NCBI GenBank assembly: GCA_049584655.1
Contig: JBAUYF010000007.1
Span: 27,288-91,287 of the forward strand
Direction: 5' to 3'
Source of the DNA: Thermoplasmata archaeon
GTDB taxonomy: Archaea > Thermoplasmatota > Thermoplasmata > Lutacidiplasmatales > UBA184
DNA: 64,000 nucleotides
The notes below the pieces were generated by a model, which was not told the DNA's origin, did not search any database, and saw nothing but the letters and a program-made list of their open reading frames with translations. Both the position numbers and the translations under genes were made by a program. Shown one piece after another: positions 5,817-62,089 of this stretch. Position 1 is the first letter of the stretch; every line of letters starts with the position of its first letter.

Positions 5817-6740
5817 ATGTTCAATGTGGAAGTAGTCGTCGCGCTCGCGATTCTCGCCGGGCTAATGGCCGGCGGGAACTCCTACATCTTTGTACAGTTC
5901 TTCCCCCGTCGGGGGGGGACCCCCAATTTGGGCCGGGCGATCCTCGTAGCGGGGCTGCTCGGTTCGTCCCTTTGCGTCTGGCTTGCGGTGATGTGGGCCG
6001 TCGTGGTACCCAGCTTCGGAGCTTGGCTCGCGGTCTTCCTCGGTATGAATTCCATGATGGTGGCGGTTGGCGTCTGGTTCGTCGCCATCTTCCTTCGCGC
6101 AGAAGAAAGGATGGTGCCTTCCGGGAGCTGGGGTTGGGCGGCAACGTTGTCCCTCTTGGTGATCGGGAATGAACTATTCATGGGAACATCGTTCGTCGGA
6201 GCCGTGGGAGGTCCCGGCGCTCTCTTGGCGGGATCCACTCCGACCCTGATCTCGGGATTCACGGCGTCCGTCAACTCGTTGTGGTTCTTCTGGGCGATGC
6301 TCGCAAATCTGACCTGGCTCGTCCTCTGGCTCCCCCTCGCTCGGAACGAAAAGGAGGCGTTGCTTGGTCTGAGCTCCGTAACGATCGTAGGCCCCTGGGT
6401 GCTTTGGAGCCCGTTCTGGGGACCGCTGGCCCTCCTCCTAGTGGTAGTGATGGTGGCCCTTCTCGTACTTCGATCGTACCGCGCCACGACCCAACCCACT
6501 GTCCGCTACTCCAGGATCGTGACTGGGTCGATTGCGGGGCTGGTGACCGTCGCGGGGGGCGCGACCATTGCCGGGCTGACTGCTGATTCTCCATTCGGAT
6601 CCCTCGCGTGGGCATCGGCTGCCTTCTTCGTTCTCTTCTTCCAACTCCTGTTCTTGTCTCAGTCGGCGTTGAAGCATACGACGCCGGCCGCGGCCAGCAC
6701 CTCCCTACCACTCACGGCACCTAGCGCCGCCTCCGAGTGA
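5817..6740 (+). CDS. Integral membrane protein of unknown function
   Basis: 307 aa with about 8 predicted TM helices. No recognised family. Confidence 0.55.
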   Translation: MFNVEVVVALAILAGLMAGGNSYIFVQFFPRRGGTPNLGRAILVAGLLGSSLCVWLAVMWAVVVPSFGAWLAVFLGMNSMMVAVGVWFVAIFLRAEERMVPSGSWGWAATLSLLVIGNELFMGTSFVGAVGGPGALLAGSTPTLISGFTASVNSLWFFWAMLANLTWLVLWLPLARNEKEALLGLSSVTIVGPWVLWSPFWGPLALLLVVVMVALLVLRSYRATTQPTVRYSRIVTGSIAGLVTVAGGATIAGLTADSPFGSLAWASAAFFVLFFQLLFLSQSALKHTTPAAASTSLPLTAPSAASE

Positions 6741-6839
6741 AAGCGAGTCGAGGGCGTCGAGAGCTGAGTGCTCCCGTTTGGCGAACCCACCGCCGATAAC
6801 GGGATCGAGCTCCTGCCCAGGCGGATGTAATGAGGGTCG

Positions 6840-7550
6840 GTGGCTCCTACCTATGGAAGTTCAATGCCGGCCTCATGTCCCGATTGCGGTGCCCAGGTGG
6901 AGTACGTCTCCGAGCCGGCACGCCTCCTCTCCGGCACCTGCGGGTCCTGCCATCACGAATTCACGATTGTGGGGGGTCACCTCGACGTCAAGCCCGCACC
7001 GGATGCCCGGTCTCGGGCGGAGGTCGGCGCCGAGGGGCCAGCGGCTCCGCAAGGGCCGACCTGCCCAGATTGCGGCGCCCCGACCGCGTTGAGGGTGACC
7101 TCCTCGCGTTCGATTGAGTCGGTCTGCTCCGACTGCGACTCGACGCGTATGTTCGTTCTATCGGACGGAAGTCGACCACCTGCGCGCGAGCCCCGATCCG
7201 ATCGGGGTTGGCGCGATGACGGGGATCGTCGAGCGCCTTCGGCCAGTCGTCCCTGCCGGCAATGCGGCGCCCCGCTGACTTTCACCACGGGTGAAGACGG
7301 GCTGTTGACGGGAGAATGCACCCAGTGCGGGAACCGGTTTACGCTCCCCGCACGCCGTGACTCAGGGGGCCCGCGCAACGATCGCCGCGAGCGCCCGTCA
7401 TTCGGACGCAGCCGTCCCTCCGGATATTCCGGGGGTCGGAACTTCTCCCGCGGCTCGGGGCGACCTCCATCCTACGAGCGAAGGGGCCGACGGAACGATT
7501 CGTCGGACGATGCGGAGGCGCCTCGCCGTCGGCGGCCGCGGCGCGAGTAG
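6840..7550 (+). CDS. Triple zinc-ribbon protein with an RG/RGG-rich C-terminal tail
   Basis: Three tandem CxxCGA-x15-20-CxxC-x3-F(T/V)(I/L) modules: CPDCGA..CGSCHHEFTIV, CPDCGA..CSDCDSTRMFVL and CRQCGA..CTQCGNRFTLP. The tail reads RSRPSGYSGGRNFSRGSGRPPSYERRGRR. Confidence 0.65.
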   Translation: MAPTYGSSMPASCPDCGAQVEYVSEPARLLSGTCGSCHHEFTIVGGHLDVKPAPDARSRAEVGAEGPAAPQGPTCPDCGAPTALRVTSSRSIESVCSDCDSTRMFVLSDGSRPPAREPRSDRGWRDDGDRRAPSASRPCRQCGAPLTFTTGEDGLLTGECTQCGNRFTLPARRDSGGPRNDRRERPSFGRSRPSGYSGGRNFSRGSGRPPSYERRGRRNDSSDDAEAPRRRRPRRE

Positions 7551-7660: not shown

Positions 7661-8566
7661 CTAAGTGAATTCTTCCCGAGCGAAGAAATAGAGACCCGCC
7701 AGCGCCGTGAGCACGAAGTACCCCGCCATGATGATTAGCCCCTCTAGGTAGGTGGGCGCGTACGTCGTGACGGTCGTCGTTCGGCCCCGCGGGCCGGTCA
7801 TGGTGGAGGTCGACACGTGCGCCGGTAGGGTGGAAAGGAAGGGATACGTGATCACCTGCTGGGCATACGTGATGATGAACCACGGTTCGATCTTCACGAG
7901 CACGGTGATTAGTTCTTCGATGATCGAGAATCCGAACAAGAACAAGACGGCGACGACGAGGACGGCGTAGAGGCTGTTCTTGAACATGGAACTAAAGAGA
8001 AAGACAGCGCCGAGCAGGGCGAGCAGGTAGAGCACCGCGATGGCGAAGGATTCGAAGAGCGCTACGGGAAACGCATTCACCCCGAGGTAGACGGCTCCGT
8101 TCGCGAGGAGGATCGCGAGATAGACTACCACGGCAACCAGGGAGGCGATCAGAGCCGCGAGGAACTTGCCCACATAGACGCTGTCGCGACGGATCGGGAG
8201 GCCCATCAGGAAGTATCCGGTCTTGTTCTGGAACTCCCCTGCGATCGCGTCCCCGCCGAAGATGATCCCGGCGAAGATGATCACGACCGTCACCCCGCCG
8301 CCCCAGAACGACCCATAGAAGGCATCGGAACTCGCGGTCAACCCCGACACCGTGGAGGAGCCATGGAAGTACGCCAGTACGAACGAAATGATGGCACCGA
8401 TCGCCGCCACGATTGCCATCATCAGCACGAACCGACGGGATCGGAGATAGTCCCTGAGTTGGTACCGAGAGAGGATCAGGGCCTGCGTCAGCGTGTCGGG
8501 AACTGAACCGATCGCCCCGTCCCCTCGAGGCGCGTTGGCGATCGCCGTAGCCGACGGAGTGCTCAT
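7661..8566 (-). CDS. ABC-2 family transporter permease
   Basis: 301 aa with six TM segments. The start overlaps the stop of the upstream ATPase gene (ATGA at 8563-8566), suggesting an operon. Confidence 0.7.
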   Translation of the reverse strand: MSTPSATAIANAPRGDGAIGSVPDTLTQALILSRYQLRDYLRSRRFVLMMAIVAAIGAIISFVLAYFHGSSTVSGLTASSDAFYGSFWGGGVTVVIIFAGIIFGGDAIAGEFQNKTGYFLMGLPIRRDSVYVGKFLAALIASLVAVVVYLAILLANGAVYLGVNAFPVALFESFAIAVLYLLALLGAVFLFSSMFKNSLYAVLVVAVLFLFGFSIIEELITVLVKIEPWFIITYAQQVITYPFLSTLPAHVSTSTMTGPRGRTTTVTTYAPTYLEGLIIMAGYFVLTALAGLYFFAREEFT

Positions 8567-9510
8567 GCGTCCCCCACCGAGATCTCACGCAAGTAGACCT
8601 CCTCCAGCGCCGATCGCGATTCGCGGAAACTGAGAAGCCCGAGATGGAGCGCTGCGATCTTTTCGAGCAGTACGCTCTGCTCGGCCCGTCCCCCTTTGAC
8701 TTGCAACGAGATCCGTTGAGAAGCGACGCGCGTGACGCCGGCCACCTCTGGCAGCCCGGCGATCGTGCCGTTTAGGACCGCGTCGTCTATGGGGGCAGCG
8801 AACTCGGCCTCGACCGATTGGACCCCGCCGCCTAGACGTCGCGTGACGTTCTCCAGGGAGTCGGCGAAGAGTAACTTCCCATGGTCGATGAGCGCTACGT
8901 CGTCACAGACGTCGACAACTTCGCTGAGGATATGACTGCTCATGAAGATCAGACGATGACCCTTCTTGAGACCACGAACGATGTCGCGGACCTCCGCCAT
9001 TCCCCGAGGGTCGAGCCCAGTGCTCGGCTCATCGAGGATTACGACCTCGGGGTCCGAAAGGAGCGCCGCGGCGATGTTGACGCGCTGTTTCATGCCCTTG
9101 GAGAAGCGGCCCACTTTGTGGGTGGCCCATTCTGACATCTTCACTTCCTCCAAGACGATAGCCGTCCGAGAGCGGATCTCCTCCGGCCGCATCCCGCGCA
9201 GGGCGCCGCTCATCTCGAGAGCCTCCCGGGGGGAGAGCGACGGGTAGATCTCGGGGGTTTCCACCAAGTCGCCGCAGGACGCGAGGGCCCGTCGACGATC
9301 CGCTTGGACGGATACACCGTTGATGAAGGCCTCCCCTTCGGTCGGAAAAATCAGGTCCGTGAACATCTTGAGGGTGGTGGTCTTTCCCGCCCCGTTCGGC
9401 CCTAGGAATCCCATACATCGGGCTCCTTCGACCTTCAGATTGAGATGGTCTAGCGCCGTGAACGCGCCGAACCGCTTGGTCAGATCTATCGCTTGAACGC
9501 TCGGTGACAT
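8563..9510 (-). CDS. ABC transporter ATP-binding protein
   Basis: Walker A GPNGAGKTT, signature LSGGMRQRV-like (FSKGMKQRVNIAAAL), and Walker B ILDEPSTGLD. The probable start is MSPSVQAIDLTKRFG (ATG, cat at 9508-9510). Confidence 0.85.
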   Translation of the reverse strand: MSPSVQAIDLTKRFGAFTALDHLNLKVEGARCMGFLGPNGAGKTTTLKMFTDLIFPTEGEAFINGVSVQADRRRALASCGDLVETPEIYPSLSPREALEMSGALRGMRPEEIRSRTAIVLEEVKMSEWATHKVGRFSKGMKQRVNIAAALLSDPEVVILDEPSTGLDPRGMAEVRDIVRGLKKGHRLIFMSSHILSEVVDVCDDVALIDHGKLLFADSLENVTRRLGGGVQSVEAEFAAPIDDAVLNGTIAGLPEVAGVTRVASQRISLQVKGGRAEQSVLLEKIAALHLGLLSFRESRSALEEVYLREISVGDA

Positions 9511-9699
9511 AGTAGCCCAGTCGCGGGGGTTGGGTCCCGGGAGTTGAAAAGCGTAGCTGCCTATGCGCAGCGCAACCCCGCACGAAGCGCTACTCGCGGG
9601 GCACAAATTCCTCCCGGATCACGATTCCTGGACCACCAGTCGAAATAGCCCATCGCGTCAACCGCCGCGAGCTACGGTTGGCGGTCTTGTCCGAAAAGT

Positions 9700-55917: not shown

Positions 55918-56093
55918 GACGCCCCCGGCTAATAGGCGTCGGTATAGGTCAACAGGTAGAGGACGCCCCCGACCATCACGGTGAGGAGGATCAGGATCGA
56001 GATCGGATTGGAGGAAAAGACCGCGACCGTCAACCCGATCAACACAGCGGGGAGGAGGATCGCCAGGAGGAATGTCCAGAGCTTTCCGTCCAT
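55918..56093 (-). CDS. Small 2-TM membrane peptide (58 aa) downstream of the FtsZ-like gene
   Basis: MDGKLWTFLLAILLPAVLIGLTVAVFSSNPISILILLTVMVGGVLYLLTYTDAY. ATG at 56093, TAG stop. It is below the track cutoff. Confidence 0.35.
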
Positions 56094-56180
56094 CGCAACC
56101 GCGAGGAGCCCGAGCTCCTCTTAACGATTCTAGCTCGAGGCGAGAGCGCCCCGACCGTCGATGACTCGGTTACCCACTCC

Positions 56181-57104
56181 TCAGTGGAGCGCCTCGGGGG
56201 GACGCGGAGGAGATTCGATCTCGAACGTCAACTCGGCCTCGTGGAACGACGGGCTGGCGGCAGGGGTAGGGGCGTAGGGGCCTAGTCGGGCGGGGCTCTC
56301 GGGCGGAAGCGAAACTTCGATCGTCAGGGGAGCCGACTCGGGGGGCTCGTTCATCGCCCGCCGCGCTCCGAGGGGCCGGGCCGCGGCCGCCGCTACGAGT
56401 GCTTCTGTGGGAATGAGATAGGCTTTCTCGATGTGACTCGCGATCGTTTCCGCCCAGTGTTGGTCCAGCTGGTTGAAAGGAAGCTTGCGCTGCCGCGCCG
56501 CCAGGTACTCGTTGTCGAGGACCTGGAGATTCGCACACCCACGTTGTTGCTTCGCGACGAACTCCTCCACGAAATGCAGGCGCGCCAGCCCACGATCCGC
56601 AACGGACCGGCGGTCCCCTTCCGCGAGGAAGGGCTTGATCACAAAGGCGGAGAGGATTTCGCACTGCCGTGCGGCGGCGCCAAGTACGTAAGGGAACGCT
56701 CCCGTTCCACTGCCGCCCCCCAGACTGCCGACGACGGTGACGAATGTGGCGCCCTCAAAGATTCGGTCCAGCGCCGGCTGCGCGGCGTGCGCCAGCATAC
56801 CGCCGACCACCGTGGAGCCACCGGTATCGGTCTCGACACCCGAATCGGGACCCAAGTAAACGCGTCGATCGAACTCCTCGAAACCCTGGACGCGGGGATC
56901 GCAGTTGATGGCTACGGTCTCGAGATAGCGAAGATGTCGGCGGGCGATGGCCCGGCCGACTTGGATAGCTCCGCCGCCGACAGCGGCCAAAACGAAACGG
57001 ACGTCGTGACCGAGCCGCAAGTCCTCCAACCCTTCGACCGCCGGGTCGGACGGCTCTTCCAGGTTGATCTCTCGGTTGGGTCCATCTCGTGCGGCCTCGT
57101 ACAT
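56181..57104 (-). CDS. Divergent FtsZ/tubulin-superfamily GTPase: GTPase domain only, no canonical C-terminal domain, Pro-rich acidic tail
   Basis: ATG (cat 57102-57104), MYEAARDGP.... AAVGGGAIQVG (G-box), AINCD, VGSLGGGSGTGAFP (tubulin/FtsZ signature GGGTGSG), FVIKPFLAEGDRR (cf. FtsZ VVTKPFxFEGxxR), LQVLDNEYL. The protein ends ...FEIESPPRPPEALH. Confidence 0.7.
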   Translation of the reverse strand: MYEAARDGPNREINLEEPSDPAVEGLEDLRLGHDVRFVLAAVGGGAIQVGRAIARRHLRYLETVAINCDPRVQGFEEFDRRVYLGPDSGVETDTGGSTVVGGMLAHAAQPALDRIFEGATFVTVVGSLGGGSGTGAFPYVLGAAARQCEILSAFVIKPFLAEGDRRSVADRGLARLHFVEEFVAKQQRGCANLQVLDNEYLAARQRKLPFNQLDQHWAETIASHIEKAYLIPTEALVAAAAARPLGARRAMNEPPESAPLTIEVSLPPESPARLGPYAPTPAASPSFHEAELTFEIESPPRPPEALH

Positions 57105-57141
57105 TGCAACTCCCCTGCGTCGTGTCTTCCCTTGCCGCTCC

Positions 57142-57642
57142 CTATCGACCGACGACCCCCTTTCGCTCCAAATCGCGGGCACTCTCTTGGAGGGCACCGA
57201 CTTGAGCCCGCTGTTCGGCGGCTTGCTGGACCGACGTGCGCGCGCGTTGGACGAGTTCGACGACCTTGAGTTCGAGCTCGGCTCGACGCACGAACTCGGC
57301 GAGGACATCGCCGATCGGGCGGTCGTTTCCGACAAGTCGAGCGTAGGCGCCCAGGGTTTCGATCTCATCGCTTCGCAGTCGAACGGGAACTTCGACGATT
57401 CCCGTAGGGTCCAAGCGGGCCGGGGGTGTGGCCGACAGCGCCCGAGCACGCAAGAAGCTGCGCAGCGCCTCTCGCATCAACTCCGAGCGGCTGGCAAACT
57501 CTCCGTTCGAGACGAACGAATCCAGCAGCTGGAGCTCTTTGCGGTTGCACCGTAGGGCGATGCGCTCATCCTCGCGACCCGCCAGGCGGTCTGCCGATTC
57601 TTTCGAACCTTCAGATGCCTTGTTGGGAGCGTTGTCGAACAC
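57142..57642 (-). CDS. Ribbon-helix-helix (CopG/ParR-like) DNA-binding protein with a C-terminal coiled coil
   Basis: ERIALRCNRKELQLLDSFVSNGEFASRSELMREALRSFL fits the RHH pattern (beta strand then two helices). The track start is TTG 57669, which abuts the TATA box. The proposed start is GTG 57642, on a leaderless transcript. Confidence 0.6.
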   Translation of the reverse strand: MFDNAPNKASEGSKESADRLAGREDERIALRCNRKELQLLDSFVSNGEFASRSELMREALRSFLRARALSATPPARLDPTGIVEVPVRLRSDEIETLGAYARLVGNDRPIGDVLAEFVRRAELELKVVELVQRARTSVQQAAEQRAQVGALQESARDLERKGVVGR

Positions 57643-57670
57643 GACTGGGCGCTGGTATGCAGAATGCAAC

Positions 57671-57678
57671 TATTTAAA
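57671..57678 (-). promoter_or_regulatory. Consensus archaeal TATA box (TTTAAATA on the minus strand) for the RHH and FtsZ-like cassette
   Basis: Plus strand reads cTATTTAAAga. It lies about 29 nt upstream of GTG 57642 and is embedded in an AT-rich 200-nt region. Confidence 0.5.
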
Positions 57679-57814: not shown

Positions 57815-57822
57815 AAAAAAAA
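57815..57822 (-). terminator. T8 tract on the minus strand 66 nt downstream of pilin gene 57888..58739
   Basis: Plus-strand A8 (gcaaaaaaaaca). Oligo-T is the archaeal termination signal. Confidence 0.4.
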
Positions 57823-57887: not shown

Positions 57888-58739
57888 CTAATCGACTCCC
57901 GCGATGCCGTAGATCTGGATCGCGGCGAGAATGGTCGACGGGTATCCTTCGTAGGTCAGGTAGATCTCACACGCCCCCGGCACCACGAAGCACCAACCAG
58001 GAGCGCCGTGGAAGTCGTCCCCGTCGACGCAGGGGTTGCCGGAGTAACCCGGGGCGCAGTCCCCGCTGTAGTCGAGCGGGGTTCCCGGGGTGTGCGTGTA
58101 CAGGATGAACGTATCCCCATTGTTGACCACGCCGGAATAGTTCAGGAGCGGTACGAAAATCCCGAGCCGATTGTACAGTGTGCTATAGGACCCCGAGGGG
58201 ATGAACGTCCCGCACTCCCCGAGGTGGGGCGCGTTAGGGGCGGGTCCCGTGGAACTTCCCGGGAACCAGGTCATGGCCGCCAATGATCCTTGTACCAAGT
58301 AGGTCGTGTAGTTCTGCCCCAGAGCATTGGTCGCTCGGCAGACGAACGAGAACTGGATCTCATCCAGCGAGATATCATCGGGTGTGTGTTGGGTAAAAAC
58401 GATCTGCGTGGAATTCATCTGGGAGTAATTCCCGGTCGCCGTAGTATCACACTGATACGTGATCGCGTTTCCCAACGTCCAGGTGTGCGGGAGCACGTTG
58501 TTGACCCAGGGAAAGTGATACGAATCGAATGTACAGTCGGTCGGATCTCCCCAGACGGGATTCGAAGTGCCCGATCGAACCAGGTAGGAAAGCGTGGGAG
58601 CGGGAGTGGGAAGGTTGAGGTGGAACTCCCACAAGATCGAGCCGACGGCCACCGTCAGGCCGACCAGGAGGACCATCGAAATGATGGTGCTCACGGCCCG
58701 CAACGGCCCAACGCGCCGACGGGACCACTTTCGGACCAT
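57888..58739 (-). CDS. Type IV pilin-like protein (class III signal peptide, Pilin_N-like) with N-glycosylation sequons
   Basis: N-terminus MVRKWSRRRVGPLRAVSTIISMVLLVGLTVAVGSIL is a basic stretch then AVS.VI..IL.V.ITV hydrophobic helix. Sequons NYS, NST, NYT, NYS and several Cys pairs. Confidence 0.65.
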   Translation of the reverse strand: MVRKWSRRRVGPLRAVSTIISMVLLVGLTVAVGSILWEFHLNLPTPAPTLSYLVRSGTSNPVWGDPTDCTFDSYHFPWVNNVLPHTWTLGNAITYQCDTTATGNYSQMNSTQIVFTQHTPDDISLDEIQFSFVCRATNALGQNYTTYLVQGSLAAMTWFPGSSTGPAPNAPHLGECGTFIPSGSYSTLYNRLGIFVPLLNYSGVVNNGDTFILYTHTPGTPLDYSGDCAPGYSGNPCVDGDDFHGAPGWCFVVPGACEIYLTYEGYPSTILAAIQIYGIAGVD

Positions 58740-58962
58740 CGGCGTAAATACTTGGACTCGAGGGATATCTACTTTGCCTTGGCCGGGCTTTCCTCTCGAG
58801 AGCGAGATTCGCCCTCGTCGCGGATCCGGCGTCTATCGAGTGAGGAAGGGCGAGGAAGAAGAGCGGCCTCTCCCCGAGTGAGTGTGTGTCAATACGCATT
58901 GATATGCAGGCCGACTATTGACGATTTGTAAGTCGTTATTTGTCGTTTCCACTCGGCTATGC

Positions 58963-58971
58963 TTTTAAATA
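58963..58971 (+). promoter_or_regulatory. TATA box TTTTAAATA upstream of pilin gene 59030
   Basis: About 60 nt upstream of the ATG. GGAGG lies 10 nt before the ATG. Confidence 0.45.
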
Positions 58972-59029
58972 GGGGAGGCTTTCCATACGCATACCTGCGG
59001 GTCGAAGGACCCTCGGAGGAAAAAGGCGA

Positions 59030-59623
59030 ATGCACGTATTTGGACGGAAAGCGAGAAGTTGGAGAAAGGGGCGCAAGCGGGGAGTATCCCCGATCATCGC
59101 TACGATTTTGCTCGTGGCGATTACCGTGGTACTGGCTGCCGTGCTCTATATCCTCATCTCGGGATTGACGAAGGGACCCGGCAACACGCCGCTTAGCACG
59201 GCGTTTGGATTCGGAACAGCGACCCAAGTGAACCCGACAGCCACTACGGCTGGCGAGTGCACAGCAGCTCACTTCTGCTATGAGATCGCGATTAGCGAAG
59301 CGAGCGGCGGGCTCACGGCGAACGATATCCAGCTGAAGCTGACCACGAATACGGGCACGATCATTGCGGTGAACGACTTCTATGTCGATGCCGCGAACTT
59401 GGCCGTGAACGGTTATCTCGCGTCCGCCGTCAACCCCTCCGGGGCATGGGCGTCGACCGCGGGAACGGGTGGAGCAGCCGTCGAAATTACGGGCACGACC
59501 GTCATGACCGGCGCGATGGTCATGTGGATCGATATTACCGCGTCCGTATACGGCACCGGCGCCATCTTGACCGCGTTCGGACAGGGGTCGTTCTCGTCTT
59601 CGGTCTCGACCACCCTCCCGTAA
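59030..59623 (+). CDS. Archaeal type IV pilin (class III signal peptide)
   Basis: MHVFGRKARSWRKGRKRG|VSPIIATILLVAITVVLAAVLYILISGL is a textbook prepilin signal (cleavage after G). The rest is Thr/Ala/Gly-rich. Confidence 0.8.
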   Translation: MHVFGRKARSWRKGRKRGVSPIIATILLVAITVVLAAVLYILISGLTKGPGNTPLSTAFGFGTATQVNPTATTAGECTAAHFCYEIAISEASGGLTANDIQLKLTTNTGTIIAVNDFYVDAANLAVNGYLASAVNPSGAWASTAGTGGAAVEITGTTVMTGAMVMWIDITASVYGTGAILTAFGQGSFSSSVSTTLP

Positions 59624-59774
59624 GTCAGTCGCAGCACGTCTAGACCAACCCTTTCCAATTCCCATTTTTCAACCGCCATTGCGGCGACCTTAGCGCCCGC
59701 GCGTCGGCGATCCAAACGCTTGCGCTGGGAACGTCTAAATAGGCCCCCTTGGAATGATTTACCGAGAGGTCGTT

Positions 59775-60980
59775 GTGAGAAGGGCCAGTCGACGTGTTGC
59801 GCTTCGAACTCAGAATTTCCGACGCTCTCGGCGGTCCTTCCGCCGGAACGGCCGCGGGGTATCGGAGGTCGTCGCGACGATCCTGCTGCTCGGTCTCACC
59901 GTAACGTTGTTCTCCTCTATCTTTTTCTTCGTCAACACGTTTCCCCGACCTCCTTCCCAATCTGCCAGCCAGTTCCAGGGGTCGCTGCTCTTTACGCCGA
60001 ACGGTGGCTACATCACGAACGTCCTGATCTTGCACCTCTCCGGTCAAGTGCTGAGCTCGCCCGTGACGACGATCTACATGCGATCCTCGGCGAACCCGGG
60101 CTTCTACAGCGCCCAATACACGGTCGCGCAGGGGCTCAATGGCTCCAACTACTGGGCGCTCGGTCAGACCTGGAACATCTCGCTCACCTCCACGGGACCG
60201 CAGCCCGGGCCCTCTCCCAACGGCGACCCCGTCCCGGACAACATGACCGTCTACATCCTGTCGGGAACGCAGTTGATTTTCACTGTCACGCTCCCCGGTC
60301 AAGTGCCGGCGCTGGCCCCTTACTTTACGAATTTCGGAACCAAGCCGTCTCCCCCCGTGGTGGCGCAGGCCTTCAATATAACGATCTTCGTCTCAAGCAC
60401 CGATCTGAACACGCACTCGGTCTACGTGAACATCTCGCAGCTTCCGGGAGTGTCGGGCGCCTTGCTAAACGCCCAGAAGATGACGAAGGGCAGCTTACCG
60501 GGGGAATACTACTACAACGTCCCCGCCGGGGTGACTTCGAATACGGGGACCTACTACGTGGTGTTCAACGCTACCGATGCCATGACAGGCCTTCGGGGGG
60601 CGCAGGGCTTCGCCTTGACGATCCAGACGCCCAGCAGCCCATCCACGCTGCTCACCGTGGGGGCCGTCAACTTGACGGCTGTCTATCACGGAGGCACGAA
60701 ACCGGCGTACTTCTCCGCGATAGTTTCGGACCTGGCCGTCTCCGGGGGTACGGCGAACGTCACGGTTTGGTTCAACATCACGATCAACGGAGGCGCGTCC
60801 ACTACGATCGGCACGGCCGTCACCGGAACGGTGGGCCCGGGCGGGACCATCACCTTGAATTCCGCAGCGTTCAAGACGGCCGCGACGAGCGCCGCGGGTC
60901 AGAAATGGGTCCTGCTGGTCACGGCGACCGCAACCAGCTTGGGGACCGCCACGGGAACGATCTCGGGCGTCCTCAGTTAG
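59775..60980 (+). CDS. Large type IV pilin-like surface protein with many N-glycosylation sequons
   Basis: ...RRNGRG|VSEVVATILLLGLTVTLFSSIFFF class-III signal. There are more than 12 NxS/T sequons. TATA-like TCTAAATA at 59733-59740 implies a start at GTG 59775 rather than the track ATG 59754. Confidence 0.65.
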   Translation: MRRASRRVALRTQNFRRSRRSFRRNGRGVSEVVATILLLGLTVTLFSSIFFFVNTFPRPPSQSASQFQGSLLFTPNGGYITNVLILHLSGQVLSSPVTTIYMRSSANPGFYSAQYTVAQGLNGSNYWALGQTWNISLTSTGPQPGPSPNGDPVPDNMTVYILSGTQLIFTVTLPGQVPALAPYFTNFGTKPSPPVVAQAFNITIFVSSTDLNTHSVYVNISQLPGVSGALLNAQKMTKGSLPGEYYYNVPAGVTSNTGTYYVVFNATDAMTGLRGAQGFALTIQTPSSPSTLLTVGAVNLTAVYHGGTKPAYFSAIVSDLAVSGGTANVTVWFNITINGGASTTIGTAVTGTVGPGGTITLNSAAFKTAATSAAGQKWVLLVTATATSLGTATGTISGVLS

Positions 60981-62089
60981 CCCTGCGGACCCTTGTTTGC
61001 GGAGCGTAGCGGAGCTGACTCCGCACTATTCGGAAGCGAAACTCCGCACTTCCAGCATGACGTCTCGTTCGGATAGACGACGGCTTGGCAGTTTGGACAA
61101 CGGCGCTCGTCGACCGTCGAAGCGATGCTGGACCCCGCCGCGGTCCCCGGCGGCGCTGCGAGATTAGTCGGGCCCGATCCAGGATTCGCCGGCGGGGCCT
61201 GGGCGTTTGATTCCGCTCGGGCCGCTTCTTCCTTCCGGTTCGCTTCTCGCCGCTTGAACCAGATGTAGACGACCAGCGCGAAGAAGAAGACCCCGCCCAC
61301 GTAGAGGAAGACCTCGACGTAGAGACCCAGAATGACGCCCTCGAGGGTGGTGAAAAAGTCGCCCGTTACGGGACCCTCGATCCCTCCGCTGTAGCCGTTA
61401 TTCTCGTTCAGGAAGATCCAGTAGTTCGGCGTGGACTTGTTGGTGGACGCGTTGATGTTCCGGACCGCCAACCCCATCTGGAACCACCAGACGTTATTCC
61501 CGTTGAGCGCCAGGGGGATTTCGACCAGAGTCGTCCCGTTCGTATTCGGGGGGAACGTGTAATTGCCTACCACCAACGGGTAGGGGGTTCCGCAATTGGA
61601 CGAAGGGGGAGGAGAGGAGCCCGTGGCGCCCGGACAAGTGCTAACCCAGACGTTCAGCCATTGAGGGGTCCCATTTCCCGGGGGGATGTACTGGGGGTAG
61701 ACGGAGACGCTGAAATTGTAGGTCCCCCCGCTGTTGCCGAGGAAAGGTGATACCTGGGCATTCTGGAGCACGGAATTGCCGTTGCCGTTCGGCAAACTGG
61801 GATCCGAGCTACCCGGAGACGACGGAGTTCGCAATTCCTGCGCGTAAAAAACGGTGAAAGCGGGAGTTGCGATCAGGAGGGCGACGATCCCCAAGGTCGC
61901 GAGGTACCGGGGTCGCTTCATTCCGCCCAAGATGGGGACCGCGAGGCCGAAGATCAGGAACGCGGGGATCGCGATGAGAACGCCTAGGTAGGCGAGTGAC
62001 GCAAATAGGACGAGCGTGGCGAGGGCAATGAGAGCGATTCTTCCCCACCGAGTTGCGACGAAAGCCCTAAAGCCGCCCTTCCGCTCCAC
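60977..62089 (-). CDS. Membrane glycoprotein: N-terminal TM helices, a sequon-rich extracytoplasmic domain, a C-terminal TM, and a cytoplasmic zinc ribbon
   Basis: 370 aa. Multiple NxS/T sites (NFS, NGT, NYT, NGT, NAS, NKS). C-terminal CPNCQAVVYPNETSCWKCG. Confidence 0.6.
   Translation of the reverse strand: MERKGGFRAFVATRWGRIALIALATLVLFASLAYLGVLIAIPAFLIFGLAVPILGGMKRPRYLATLGIVALLIATPAFTVFYAQELRTPSSPGSSDPSLPNGNGNSVLQNAQVSPFLGNSGGTYNFSVSVYPQYIPPGNGTPQWLNVWVSTCPGATGSSPPPSSNCGTPYPLVVGNYTFPPNTNGTTLVEIPLALNGNNVWWFQMGLAVRNINASTNKSTPNYWIFLNENNGYSGGIEGPVTGDFFTTLEGVILGLYVEVFLYVGGVFFFALVVYIWFKRREANRKEEAARAESNAQAPPANPGSGPTNLAAPPGTAAGSSIASTVDERRCPNCQAVVYPNETSCWKCGVSLPNSAESAPLRSANKGPQG

Follow-up and report, generated by a model that had tools for sequence, protein, structure and literature searches.

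A locus with three genes for type IV pilin-type surface proteins in a soil archaeon of the Thermoplasmata

Genes and signals of the locus

The DNA analyzed here, a stretch of 64 kb referred to as the window, comes from a soil archaeon of the Thermoplasmata that is a relative of Lutacidiplasmatales. A check of its open reading frames confirmed three pilin-type genes, labelled A, B and C, which lie next to a gene for a membrane protein, D:

57815-57822, minus strand: oligo-T run (T8), 66 nt after the stop of A; the only T8 in the window
57888..58739, minus strand: gene A, 283 aa, divergent pilin-type protein with predicted cleavage after A15; 4 sequons
58964-58973, plus strand: TATA-like box TTTAAATAGG, 57 nt before the ATG of B
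59015-59019, plus strand: GGAGG, possible ribosome-binding site of B
59030..59623, plus strand: gene B, 197 aa, PilA/CdiPB-like candidate major pilin with predicted cleavage after G18 and predicted mature N-terminus VSPIIATILLVAITVVLAAVLYILISGLTKG; two cysteines (C77 and C83) and zero N-glycosylation sequons
59734-59743, plus strand: TATA-like box TCTAAATAGG, 32 nt before the GTG of C at 59775
59775..60980, plus strand: gene C, 401 aa, GTG start, large pilin-type protein with predicted cleavage after G28; 9 sequons
60977..62089, minus strand: gene D, 370 aa, conserved neighbour of the pilin genes

The first-pass annotation had assigned a TATA box of its own to each of the three pilin genes, which holds for B and C, where the boxes are conserved, and is not confirmed for A, which has a weak TATA with 3 mismatches that is conserved in the closest relatives only. 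Sequences with at most one mismatch to TTTAAATA occur upstream of 27 of 44 B orthologues and 45 of 59 C orthologues, as compared to 0.7% of random 170-nt windows, and the boxes ahead of these 45 C orthologues, of the type TCTAAATA, lie at a consistent distance. The box upstream of B may function as a promoter, and the position of the other one, 32 nt before the GTG of C, predicts a leaderless or near-leaderless mRNA. The oligo-T run that had been noticed at one of the pilin genes is indeed present behind the stop of A, where it likely acts as an archaeal terminator parting A from the RHH/FtsZ-like operon. The proteins had also been described as all dense in NxS/T sequons. Against a background of 0.26 sequons per 100 aa this applies to A, C and D, with 4, 9 and 7, respectively, whereas B has none and sequons are scarce in its family overall. 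Judged only from the sequons, the proteins that carry them may be glycosylated.

Class III signals and relatives of the pilin-type proteins

Class III signal peptides have a charged n-region, a charged residue at position -2 and G, A or S at position -1, directly before the hydrophobic domain (PMC4371748). The N-termini of A, B and C are built in this way: a basic stretch precedes an R-[G/A] site (R-A↓V in A, R-G↓V in B and C, the arrow marking the predicted cut), and right after the site follows an uninterrupted hydrophobic helix of at least 20 residues; the hydrophobic segments on the Kyte-Doolittle scale are 10-41 in A, 16-51 in B and 28-56 in C. The predicted sites read MVRKWSRRRVGPLRA↓VSTIISMVLLVGLTVAVGSIL in A, ...WRKGRKRG↓VSPIIATILLVAITVVLAAVLYILISGL in B and ...SFRRNGRG↓VSEVVATILLLGLTVTLFSSIFFFV in C. 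A FlaFind-style prediction, which had been proposed as a check, picked out the same proteins: among all open reading frames of at least 40 aa in the window, a loosened FlaFind-like regular expression flagged only A, B, C and one frame antisense to B. The motifs are kept across about 80 related species-level genomes, as R[GA]↓VSP in 43 of 46 members of the B family, [RK][GA]↓[VIA][SA][DE] in 58 of 65 of the C family and R[GA]↓VS[TE] in 7 of 12 of the A family; three further A members show divergent sites of the G↓[VI] type.

The Pfam model Pilin_N (PF07790), with a cut-off of 25.2 bits, is passed by B (32.4 bits) and C (31.1 bits). TIGR02537 describes the N-terminal domain common to archaellins and pilins, and with its cut-off of 20 it gives 50.3 for B and a borderline 20.0 for C. 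Protein A stays under the Pilin_N threshold with 16.3 bits, but 6 of 10 A orthologues match the model at E values up to 0.01 (best 2.5e-5), the motif R-[GA]↓VS[TE]II is kept in the A family, and the N-terminus of A aligns with that of B at an E value of 1e-5. The class III signal peptide is shared with archaellins; in contrast to these, A, B and C have no match to the archaellin domain PF01917 at E values up to 0.1, and no archaellum accessory genes lie nearby. Lutacidiplasmatales have been reported to be without archaellum genes (PMC9287336).

The best PDB match of B is 8rey_M, the CdiPB subunit of the pilus of Cuniculiplasma divulgatum (Thermoplasmatales; PDB 8REY), in which CdiPB is the major and CdiPA the minor pilin (Gaines et al. 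2025, PMC12448462). Residues 19-102 of B align with residues 1-84 of the chain, with an overall phmmer E value of 2.9e-4, and over the first 35 residues of the predicted mature protein 24 of 35 are identical. The 8REY chain opens with VSPIIATILL, and its modelled start is exactly the V that is homologous to the predicted mature V of B. The sequence homology between B and CdiPB includes the mature N-terminus; it is mainly limited to the N-terminal helix, after which the likeness drops and the homology of the globular domains is weak. In both organisms a small pilin gene is found beside a second pilin-type gene, which here encodes the 401-aa three-domain protein C. The model of the C. divulgatum pilus includes glycans (PMC12448462), whereas the 197-aa B protein is sequon-free.

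A wider relationship is with the PilA proteins of Euryarchaeota. The R-[GA]↓VS-type site occurs in Haloferax volcanii PilA1-6 (arCOG02416; PF07790, Pilin_N/DUF1628), where PilA4-6 carry RAVS (PMC4371748). As in the euryarchaeal stand-alone major pilins, whose H-domain hardly varies between paralogues or orthologues, the H-domain of B is a 30-residue helix that is nearly invariant across about 45 species, and further PDB matches of B are the haloarchaeal PilA2 of Natrinema, Pilin_N pilins and Iho670. The present proteins differ from the PilA family in their phylum-level lineage, in globular domains that show no sequence relation and in being predicted from sequence. Public pipelines already call the type IV pilin identity of such proteins: the homologues are annotated as 'type IV pilin', 'PilA' or 'archaellin/type IV pilin N-terminal domain-containing protein', and 1361 homologues of B carry one of the first two names.

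It might be argued that A, B and C start with ordinary Sec or Tat signal peptides, or with signal anchors, in which the pilin-like motif is coincidental, a reading that could draw on the sub-threshold Pilin_N score of A and on the RRR in its n-region. We consider this extremely improbable, since the charged residue and the G or A stand directly before and not after the hydrophobic stretch in three families, B and C pass curated models, no AxA-type site follows the helix of A, B or C, and the solved CdiPB chain has the homologous V as its mature end. Furthermore, none of the three proteins matches a substrate-binding protein family in Pfam or NCBIfam, which argues against the earlier alternative of ordinary substrate-binding proteins. 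The class III prepilin starts first noticed from the sequence of A, B and C are supported by the domain models, the conservation in some 80 genomes and the homology of B to a pilin of solved structure.

The Ig-like protein and the neighbouring genes

Structure prediction of the large pilin-like protein, also proposed earlier, gave an AF2 model of C with an N-terminal helix (29-54) followed by three tandem Ig-like beta-sandwich domains; of the three pilin-type proteins, C is the one that was modelled. The best Foldseek matches are tandem-repeat adhesins, for example SiiE and an ice-binding adhesin. Within the clade, C-type genes vary from 290 to over 800 aa and are duplicated in L081 and L090. 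Archaeal minor pilins with Ig-like domains and variable length (250-550 aa) were described by Makarova, Koonin and Albers (2016, PMC4858521), and C resembles their arCOG02911-type proteins: it is positive in the FlaFind-like search, has an all-beta, Ig-like fold, varies in length and is readily duplicated. This likeness is an analogy of architecture and not an arCOG assignment. C may serve as a minor pilin or tip pilin, or as an adhesin with a pilin-type anchor.

The latter option can be extended to some or all class III proteins of the locus, C especially, which would then be surface glycoproteins or adhesins anchored by a pilin-like helix instead of filament subunits. They could belong to the unordered glycoprotein envelope of S-layer-less Thermoplasmata, such a layer being present in Thermoplasmatales, or to a bindosome-like 'functionalised' type IV filament system. 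The three Ig-like domains, 9 sequons and adhesin matches of C agree with this, as do its relatives, which span 290 to 1781 aa and in some cases have CARDB domains; the very large ones, of 1701 and 1781 aa, look more like anchored adhesins than like filament subunits. For many of the archaeal proteins that FlaFind picks out no pilus role is known (PMC4371748), and binding proteins with class III signal peptides are widespread (bioRxiv 10.64898/2026.04.22.720090). Nevertheless, we find this explanation rather unlikely. The substrate-binding domain typical of bindosome proteins was not detected in A, B or C, the small B protein with its nearly invariant helix is homologous to a proven filament subunit, and large Ig-like minor pilins are an accepted part of archaeal pili (PMC4858521).

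Protein A has a cysteine-rich, conserved ectodomain with 8 cysteines and the motifs WGDPTDC and DxDDFHGAPGWCF (consensus DxDDYHGAPxWCF), and was found in only about 10 of the surveyed genomes. The three pilin-type genes occupy a variable 'pilin island' in a Thermoplasmata genome.

Protein D was correctly described at first as the product of a convergent gene, with an ectodomain between transmembrane helices and a CPNC...CWKC zinc ribbon. Its layout comprises three N-terminal transmembrane helices, a beta-sandwich ectodomain (about 108-242) with 6 sequons and a conserved C152/C166 pair, a fourth transmembrane helix, a disordered linker and the C-terminal zinc ribbon, of which the cysteines C331/334/345/348 are invariant in 35 homologues. 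No class III signal was found in D, and its Pfam matches are to zinc-ribbon models only. In 4 genomes D is directly followed by the RHH and FtsZ-like genes, with no pilin genes between, and more distant homologues occur in unrelated contexts with neither pilin nor tubulin neighbours. Since D is retained in pilin-free loci and its distant homologues stand in other surroundings, nothing ties it to the pilins, and a role as platform or accessory protein of a type IV pilus is not supported, also in view of the absence of a T2SSF/FlaJ domain.

It is conceivable that the pilins, D and the genes for the RHH, FtsZ-like and 54-aa proteins constitute one module, in which D and the FtsZ-like protein would control a surface filament or its placement. 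Of about 55 loci with sufficient flanking sequence, nearly all share the gene order ApgM, D, [C, B, (A)], RHH, Tubulin-like, 54-aa protein, which persists even where D is only 26% identical. Moreover, TYTAAATAGG (one mismatch allowed) has only three sites in the window, upstream of B, C and the RHH gene, and some type IV pilus loci of Thermococci and Halobacteria have been seen to contain FtsZ-family genes (PMC4858521). However, the housekeeping genes on both sides (ApgM, Trm5, PPDK, PAC2, FEN1, FTCD) are equally syntenic in the clade, so that adjacency carries no specific signal, and a TATA box close to the consensus may be no more than the sign of a strong promoter. The A/B pair is divergent and the C/D pair convergent, with 3' ends overlapping by 4 nt, and the genes therefore do not share a transcript. 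No match to CetZ structures was obtained for the FtsZ-like protein, and the pilin-free genomes and distant homologues of D point in the same direction. Such a module is in our view improbable. Of the original proposal of a pilin locus, made up of three pilin genes and D, the pilin genes stand, whereas the membership of D came from adjacency alone in a neighbourhood that is syntenic throughout.

Proposed assembly of the pilin-type proteins

Neither a PilB/FlaI-type P-loop ATPase nor T2SSF or Peptidase_A24 was found in the window, and no membrane frame of the GxGD type (prepilin peptidase-like) was detected there. Around the related loci, the ATPase Walker A motif is absent within 10 kb on either side in all 93 cases, and precomputed Pfam tables of six looked-up contexts list no T2SSE or T2SSF. 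The observation in the first-pass annotation that the window has no assembly ATPase or platform gene is correct, and extends to the prepilin peptidase, but the significance attached to it is not justified, since this is the documented euryarchaeal norm. In H. volcanii, pilA1-6 lie apart from pilB3C3 (PMC4371748, PMC4858521), and in C. divulgatum the cdiPA/B genes are about 500 kb away from the assembly machinery (PMC12448462), which includes CdiPE1/E2 and a split CdiPF; a counterpart in the lineage of B would be encoded outside the regions covered here. With an assembly motor encoded elsewhere being normal for such genes, and with B closely resembling a subunit solved by cryo-EM, the locus is real but ordinary: three neighbouring genes for type IV pilin-type surface proteins.

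The explanation that we prefer, and regard as probable in its full form, is that all three island genes encode type IV pilin-type proteins, which would be assembled into a pilus by machinery encoded in trans. Each precursor would be inserted through Sec and cut after the R-G/A site by a class III signal peptidase of the PibD/ArlK type, encoded elsewhere, and the conserved hydrophobic N-terminal helix would serve filament assembly by a secretion ATPase and a platform protein that are likewise encoded in trans. The small, sequon-free B protein, with its nearly invariant CdiPB-homologous helix, would be the filament-forming major pilin. Protein C, with three glycosylatable Ig-like domains, may be built in as a minor or tip pilin, or it may be an adhesin located on the filament or next to it, and A may be a cysteine-rich accessory minor pilin of some lineages only, while D would be a neighbouring membrane protein outside the proposed pilus.

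It is quite improbable that the clade lacks all type IV filament machinery, in which case its strongly conserved pilin-type proteins would have to function with no canonical assembly system. If so, A, B and C could be envelope proteins anchored in the membrane, or they could be organised by D and the FtsZ-like protein, next to which the pilin-type genes are kept across the order.

Prepilin-type proteins and the candidate major pilin

The locus lies in DNA with a G+C content of about 62% (GC3 about 0.7–0.8 in real genes), and the reading frames from which the first-pass annotation derived a pilin locus are all present:

57888..58739, minus strand: pilin-type gene A, 283 aa
59030..59623, plus strand: pilin-type gene B, 197 aa
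59754 or 59775..60980, plus strand: pilin-type gene C, 408 or 401 aa depending on the start chosen
60977..62089, minus strand: gene D, membrane protein with a zinc ribbon, 370 aa

The prepilin-type starts proposed for A, B and C were borne out, since all three combine a basic stretch with a charged residue at −2, G or A at −1 and then an unbroken hydrophobic segment, which are the criteria for archaeal prepilins (PMC4371748). Cleavage is predicted between MVRKWSRRRVGPLRA and VSTIISMVLLVGLTVAVGSIL in A, between MHVFGRKARSWRKGRKRG and VSPIIATILLVAITVVLAAVLYILISGL in B, and between ...RRSFRRNGRG and VSEVVATILLLGLTVTLFSSIFFFV in C. For the suggested FlaFind-style check, all ORFs of 40 aa or longer across the 64-kb window were screened with a loosened FlaFind-like regular expression; apart from one ORF antisense to B, it picked out A, B and C alone, which implies that their clustering is not due to chance. 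The Pfam family Pilin_N (cut-off 25.2 bits) matches B with 32.4 bits and C with 31.1 bits, and TIGR02537 (cut-off 20) gives 50.3 for B and 20.0 for C. The Pilin_N score of A itself is only 16.3 bits; six of 10 A orthologues match the family (best E 2.5e-5), and the A family has kept R-[GA] before the cleavage point and VS[TE]II after it. The three proteins are alike solely in this N-terminal segment. A 66-aa ORF at 58681..58881 on the plus strand, called by some gene callers, trims A to 262 aa, a form that would lose the basic n-region; orthologues retain the complete N-terminus, which favours the 283-aa form and suggests that the small ORF is spurious.

An archaellin identity was rejected, as PF01917 gave no match. 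That A, B and C carry ordinary Sec or Tat signals, for instance as substrate-binding proteins, deserves next to no credence, since the cleavage motif precedes the helix and substrate-binding domains are absent; this identity was rejected as well.

The best match of B among solved structures is 8rey_M (E 2.9e-4). This is the subunit of the CdiP pilus of Cuniculiplasma divulgatum (Thermoplasmatales; PDB 8REY), the major pilin CdiPB (PMC12448462). Its modelled chain starts with VSPIIATILLIAITVVLAATLVTILGGFTHGVSNT and the predicted mature end of B is VSPIIATILLVAITVVLAAVLYILISGLTKGPGNT, with 24 of 35 residues identical. Further PDB matches are Natrinema PilA2, a filament of a 'Pilin_N domain-containing protein' and Iho670. 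Across some 45 species the helix of the B family, R[GA] before the cleavage point followed by VSPIIATILLVAITVVLAAVLYVLISGLT.G, is almost invariant, which recalls the conserved H-domain of Haloferax volcanii PilA1-6 that is needed for pilus formation (PMC4371748). The 1361 database homologues bear names such as 'archaellin/type IV pilin N-terminal domain-containing protein', 'type IV pilin' and 'archaeal type IV pilus assembly protein PilA'. Judged from its sequence, B is a candidate CdiPB/PilA-like major pilin, with strong homology confined to the helix.

The AlphaFold model of C (mean pLDDT 77.1) has a helix at residues 29–54 followed by three beta-sandwich domains, for which the top Foldseek matches were tandem-repeat adhesins and complement MG-domain arrays. 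Homologues of C are named 'type IV pilin', some carry CARDB, and within the clade they measure some 290 aa at the shortest and more than 800 aa at the longest. These properties fit the minor pilins of Makarova et al. 2016 (PMC4858521), which are FlaFind-positive, Ig-like and length-variable, and they fit a pilin-anchored adhesin too. The variable length and Ig-like fold are also what one would expect if C (and others) were anchored surface glycoproteins, a reading that we regard as unlikely, though worth keeping in mind, next to that of C as a minor pilin. In a sister lineage (GCA_028867375.1, D homologue 26% identical), giant Pilin_N proteins occupy the position of C:

L099/L100, 11238..16583, minus strand: 1781 aa, with CARDB
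L099/L100, 16788..21182, minus strand: 1701 aa

Both are adhesin-sized proteins with a pilin-type N-terminus. Gene A, present in only about 10 of the surveyed genomes, encodes a conserved, Cys-rich ectodomain with 8 Cys and the motifs WGDPTDC and DxDDYHGAPxWCF (invariant in the family as WGDPTD(C) and D.DD.HG.P.WCF), for which no match was found in Pfam or among PDB sequences.

Promoters, sequons and protein D

The elements found upstream of B, C and the neighbouring RHH gene are:

58964-58973: TATA-like box TTTAAATAGG, 57 nt before the ATG of B
59015-59019: GGAGG upstream of B
59734-59743: TATA-like box TCTAAATAGG, 32 nt before the GTG of C at 59775
57669-57678, minus strand: near-consensus TATA box TTTAAATAGT, about 27 nt before the start of the 166-aa RHH gene

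The claim that each gene has its own TATA box thus holds for B and C; for A the candidate box is weak. The boxes of B and C are phylogenetically conserved: with at most one mismatch, TTTAAATA was found at consistent distances in 27 of 44 upstream regions of B and 45 of 59 of C, as compared to 0.7% of random 170-nt windows. TTTAAATAGT is the sole other one-mismatch match in the window to the motif common to both promoters. Since the alternative ATG of C at 59754 lies merely 11 nt past TCTAAATAGG, the GTG at 59775, also called by NCBI (401 aa), is the more plausible start, and a leaderless mRNA is predicted. The oligo-T run attributed to one of the genes is indeed there, as the sole T8 in the window, 66 nt past the stop of A. 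A scan for sigma-70 promoters and intrinsic terminators was uninformative, these models not being applicable to archaea.

All four proteins had been described as rich in sequons, which is correct for A (4; 1.41 per 100 aa), C (9; 2.24) and D (7, six of them in the ectodomain; 1.89), the background in 38 further genes of the window being 0.26 per 100 aa, and incorrect for B, which has none. Family medians per 100 aa are 1.41 for A, 0.47 for B (zero sequons in 16 of 46 members), 1.72 for C and 2.19 for D, with 0–0.3 for cytoplasmic neighbours. Glycosylation of the sequon-bearing proteins may be expected on this basis.

The ectodomain between membrane helices and the terminal zinc ribbon ascribed to D agree with both its model and its homologues. 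In the model (pLDDT 86.7), three transmembrane helices precede a beta sandwich of eight strands; a fourth transmembrane helix then continues into a cytoplasmic helix, after which a disordered linker leads to the ribbon. Basic residues flanking the predicted cytoplasmic helix ends place the sandwich outside. The Ig-like ectodomain has a conserved Cys pair, and an APLPS-like tail follows the ribbon, which is cytoplasmic. Conserved among 109 close homologues are the N-terminal helices, STCPGATG...C, GIEGPV and the invariant ribbon E..CPNC.AVVYP.E..CWKCG. A profile search yielded 439 representatives at 50% identity, including proteins of 17–21% identity with the same architecture and several of 600–830 aa in which the profile matched 2–3 stretches. 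No curated family covers D past the zinc ribbon, and D has no class III signal; it represents an uncharacterised membrane-protein family. Other zinc-ribbon proteins occur on the same contig:

5817..7550, plus strand: 307-aa polytopic membrane protein without Pfam match, followed by a 236-aa protein

The latter carries several CxxC pairs (a DUF7351-like double zinc ribbon) together with an Arg-rich tail. About 10 kb past the window end lies a zinc-ribbon (DZR) protein of 974–1108 aa, also present in relatives L006, L009 and L010 at 1..~420-680.

A variable island beside an FtsZ-like cassette

Related loci, collected with a profile of D, came from soil and peat Thermoplasmata MAGs, including Candidatus Lutacidiplasma silvani and 'Candidatus Lutacidiplasmatales'. 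With D read as plus, the order in 80 species-level genomes is ApgM(−), D(+), then C(−), B(−) and sometimes A(+), followed by RHH(+), tubulin-like(+), 54-aa transmembrane protein(+) and PAC2(−). Between D and RHH lie 206 bp to 9.1 kb; the gap is empty in 4 genomes and otherwise contains B alone, C alone, C with B, or all three, from which we infer that the pilin genes make up an island of varying content whose site is fixed. In L024, L029, L034 and L088, D is followed directly by the RHH and FtsZ-like genes (gap 206–296 bp) without a pilin-type gene. The island is either dispensable at this site or has moved elsewhere in such genomes.

The cassette that adjoins A was present in every locus with enough flank:

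55929..57678, minus strand: co-directional genes for RHH (166 aa), FtsZ-like (307 aa) and 54-aa membrane proteins

The RHH protein gave a weak CdrS-like match, and in the divergent FtsZ-like protein the match to FtsZ (about 52–59 bits) is limited to the N-terminal GTPase domain. A CetZ identity (arCOG02202-type, known from other pilus loci) was rejected, since the PDB search gave FtsZ N-terminal domains, at about 52 bits or less, and no CetZ entry; any parallel with CetZ-type pilus loci would be by analogy only.

Housekeeping genes on both sides show equal synteny, and hence the adjacency of D, pilin and FtsZ-like genes cannot be read as functional linkage. A joint module of these three components accordingly receives little credence, the more so as distant D homologues adjoin a beta-helix surface protein, Topo VI B or an acetyltransferase, with no pilin or tubulin genes nearby. 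Membership of D in a pilin locus is likewise not upheld, D being retained in the four genomes without pilin genes and its distant homologues lying elsewhere. The coding ends of C and D overlap by 4 nt at 60977..60980 (TAG of C, TAA of D), so these convergent genes are not co-transcribed; there is no room for a terminator, and the transcripts must overlap antisense at their 3' ends.

Assembly machinery and proposed function

The absence of an assembly ATPase or platform from the window was confirmed, and a prepilin peptidase was not detected there either: a P-loop expression on ORFs of at least 150 aa found only an ABC transporter ATPase (8563..9606), Pfam scans of 38 ORFs found no T2SSE, T2SSF or Peptidase_A24, and no GxGD-type membrane ORF was detected. 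A T2SSE-type Walker A expression had 0 matches in 93 loci (±10 kb, ~1.5 Mb). Such absence is to be expected and is less noteworthy than had been proposed, remote pilin genes being a known pattern: the arrangement is like that of C. divulgatum, where cdiPA and cdiPB, 862 bp apart, lie ~500 kb from the machinery (PMC12448462), pilA1-6 of H. volcanii are not co-regulated with pilB3C3 (PMC4371748), and stand-alone PilA genes are numerous (PMC4858521). An absence of archaellum genes has been reported for Lutacidiplasmatales (PMC9287336), and pilus arCOGs and KOs do not occur in the portion of the Sheridan 2022 supplementary data considered here. That the clade lacks any type IV filament machinery, with the pilins acting otherwise, possibly together with D and the FtsZ-like protein, seems very improbable.

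We consider it probable that the locus supplies subunits of a type IV pilus. Sec would insert each precursor, and a PibD-type peptidase encoded elsewhere would cut after R-G/A. B would polymerise through its invariant helix with the help of a trans-encoded ATPase and platform; C, and A where present, would be glycosylated proteins acting as adhesins or as minor or tip pilins. D would be unrelated to the pilus, or peripheral at most.

Public pipelines already annotate proteins of the A, B and C types as type IV pilins, and the gene arrangement matches that of the closest studied relatives; beyond the prediction of pili, the locus adds little. The D family may merit its own study, independent of pilins. 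Soil Thermoplasmata of the Lutacidiplasmatales type are uncultured and were earlier described as non-motile. A conserved pilin gene with a strong putative promoter, whose product is homologous to a structurally solved Thermoplasmatales subunit, predicts that they form adhesive type IV pili, which would bear on their attachment in acidic soils and peat.
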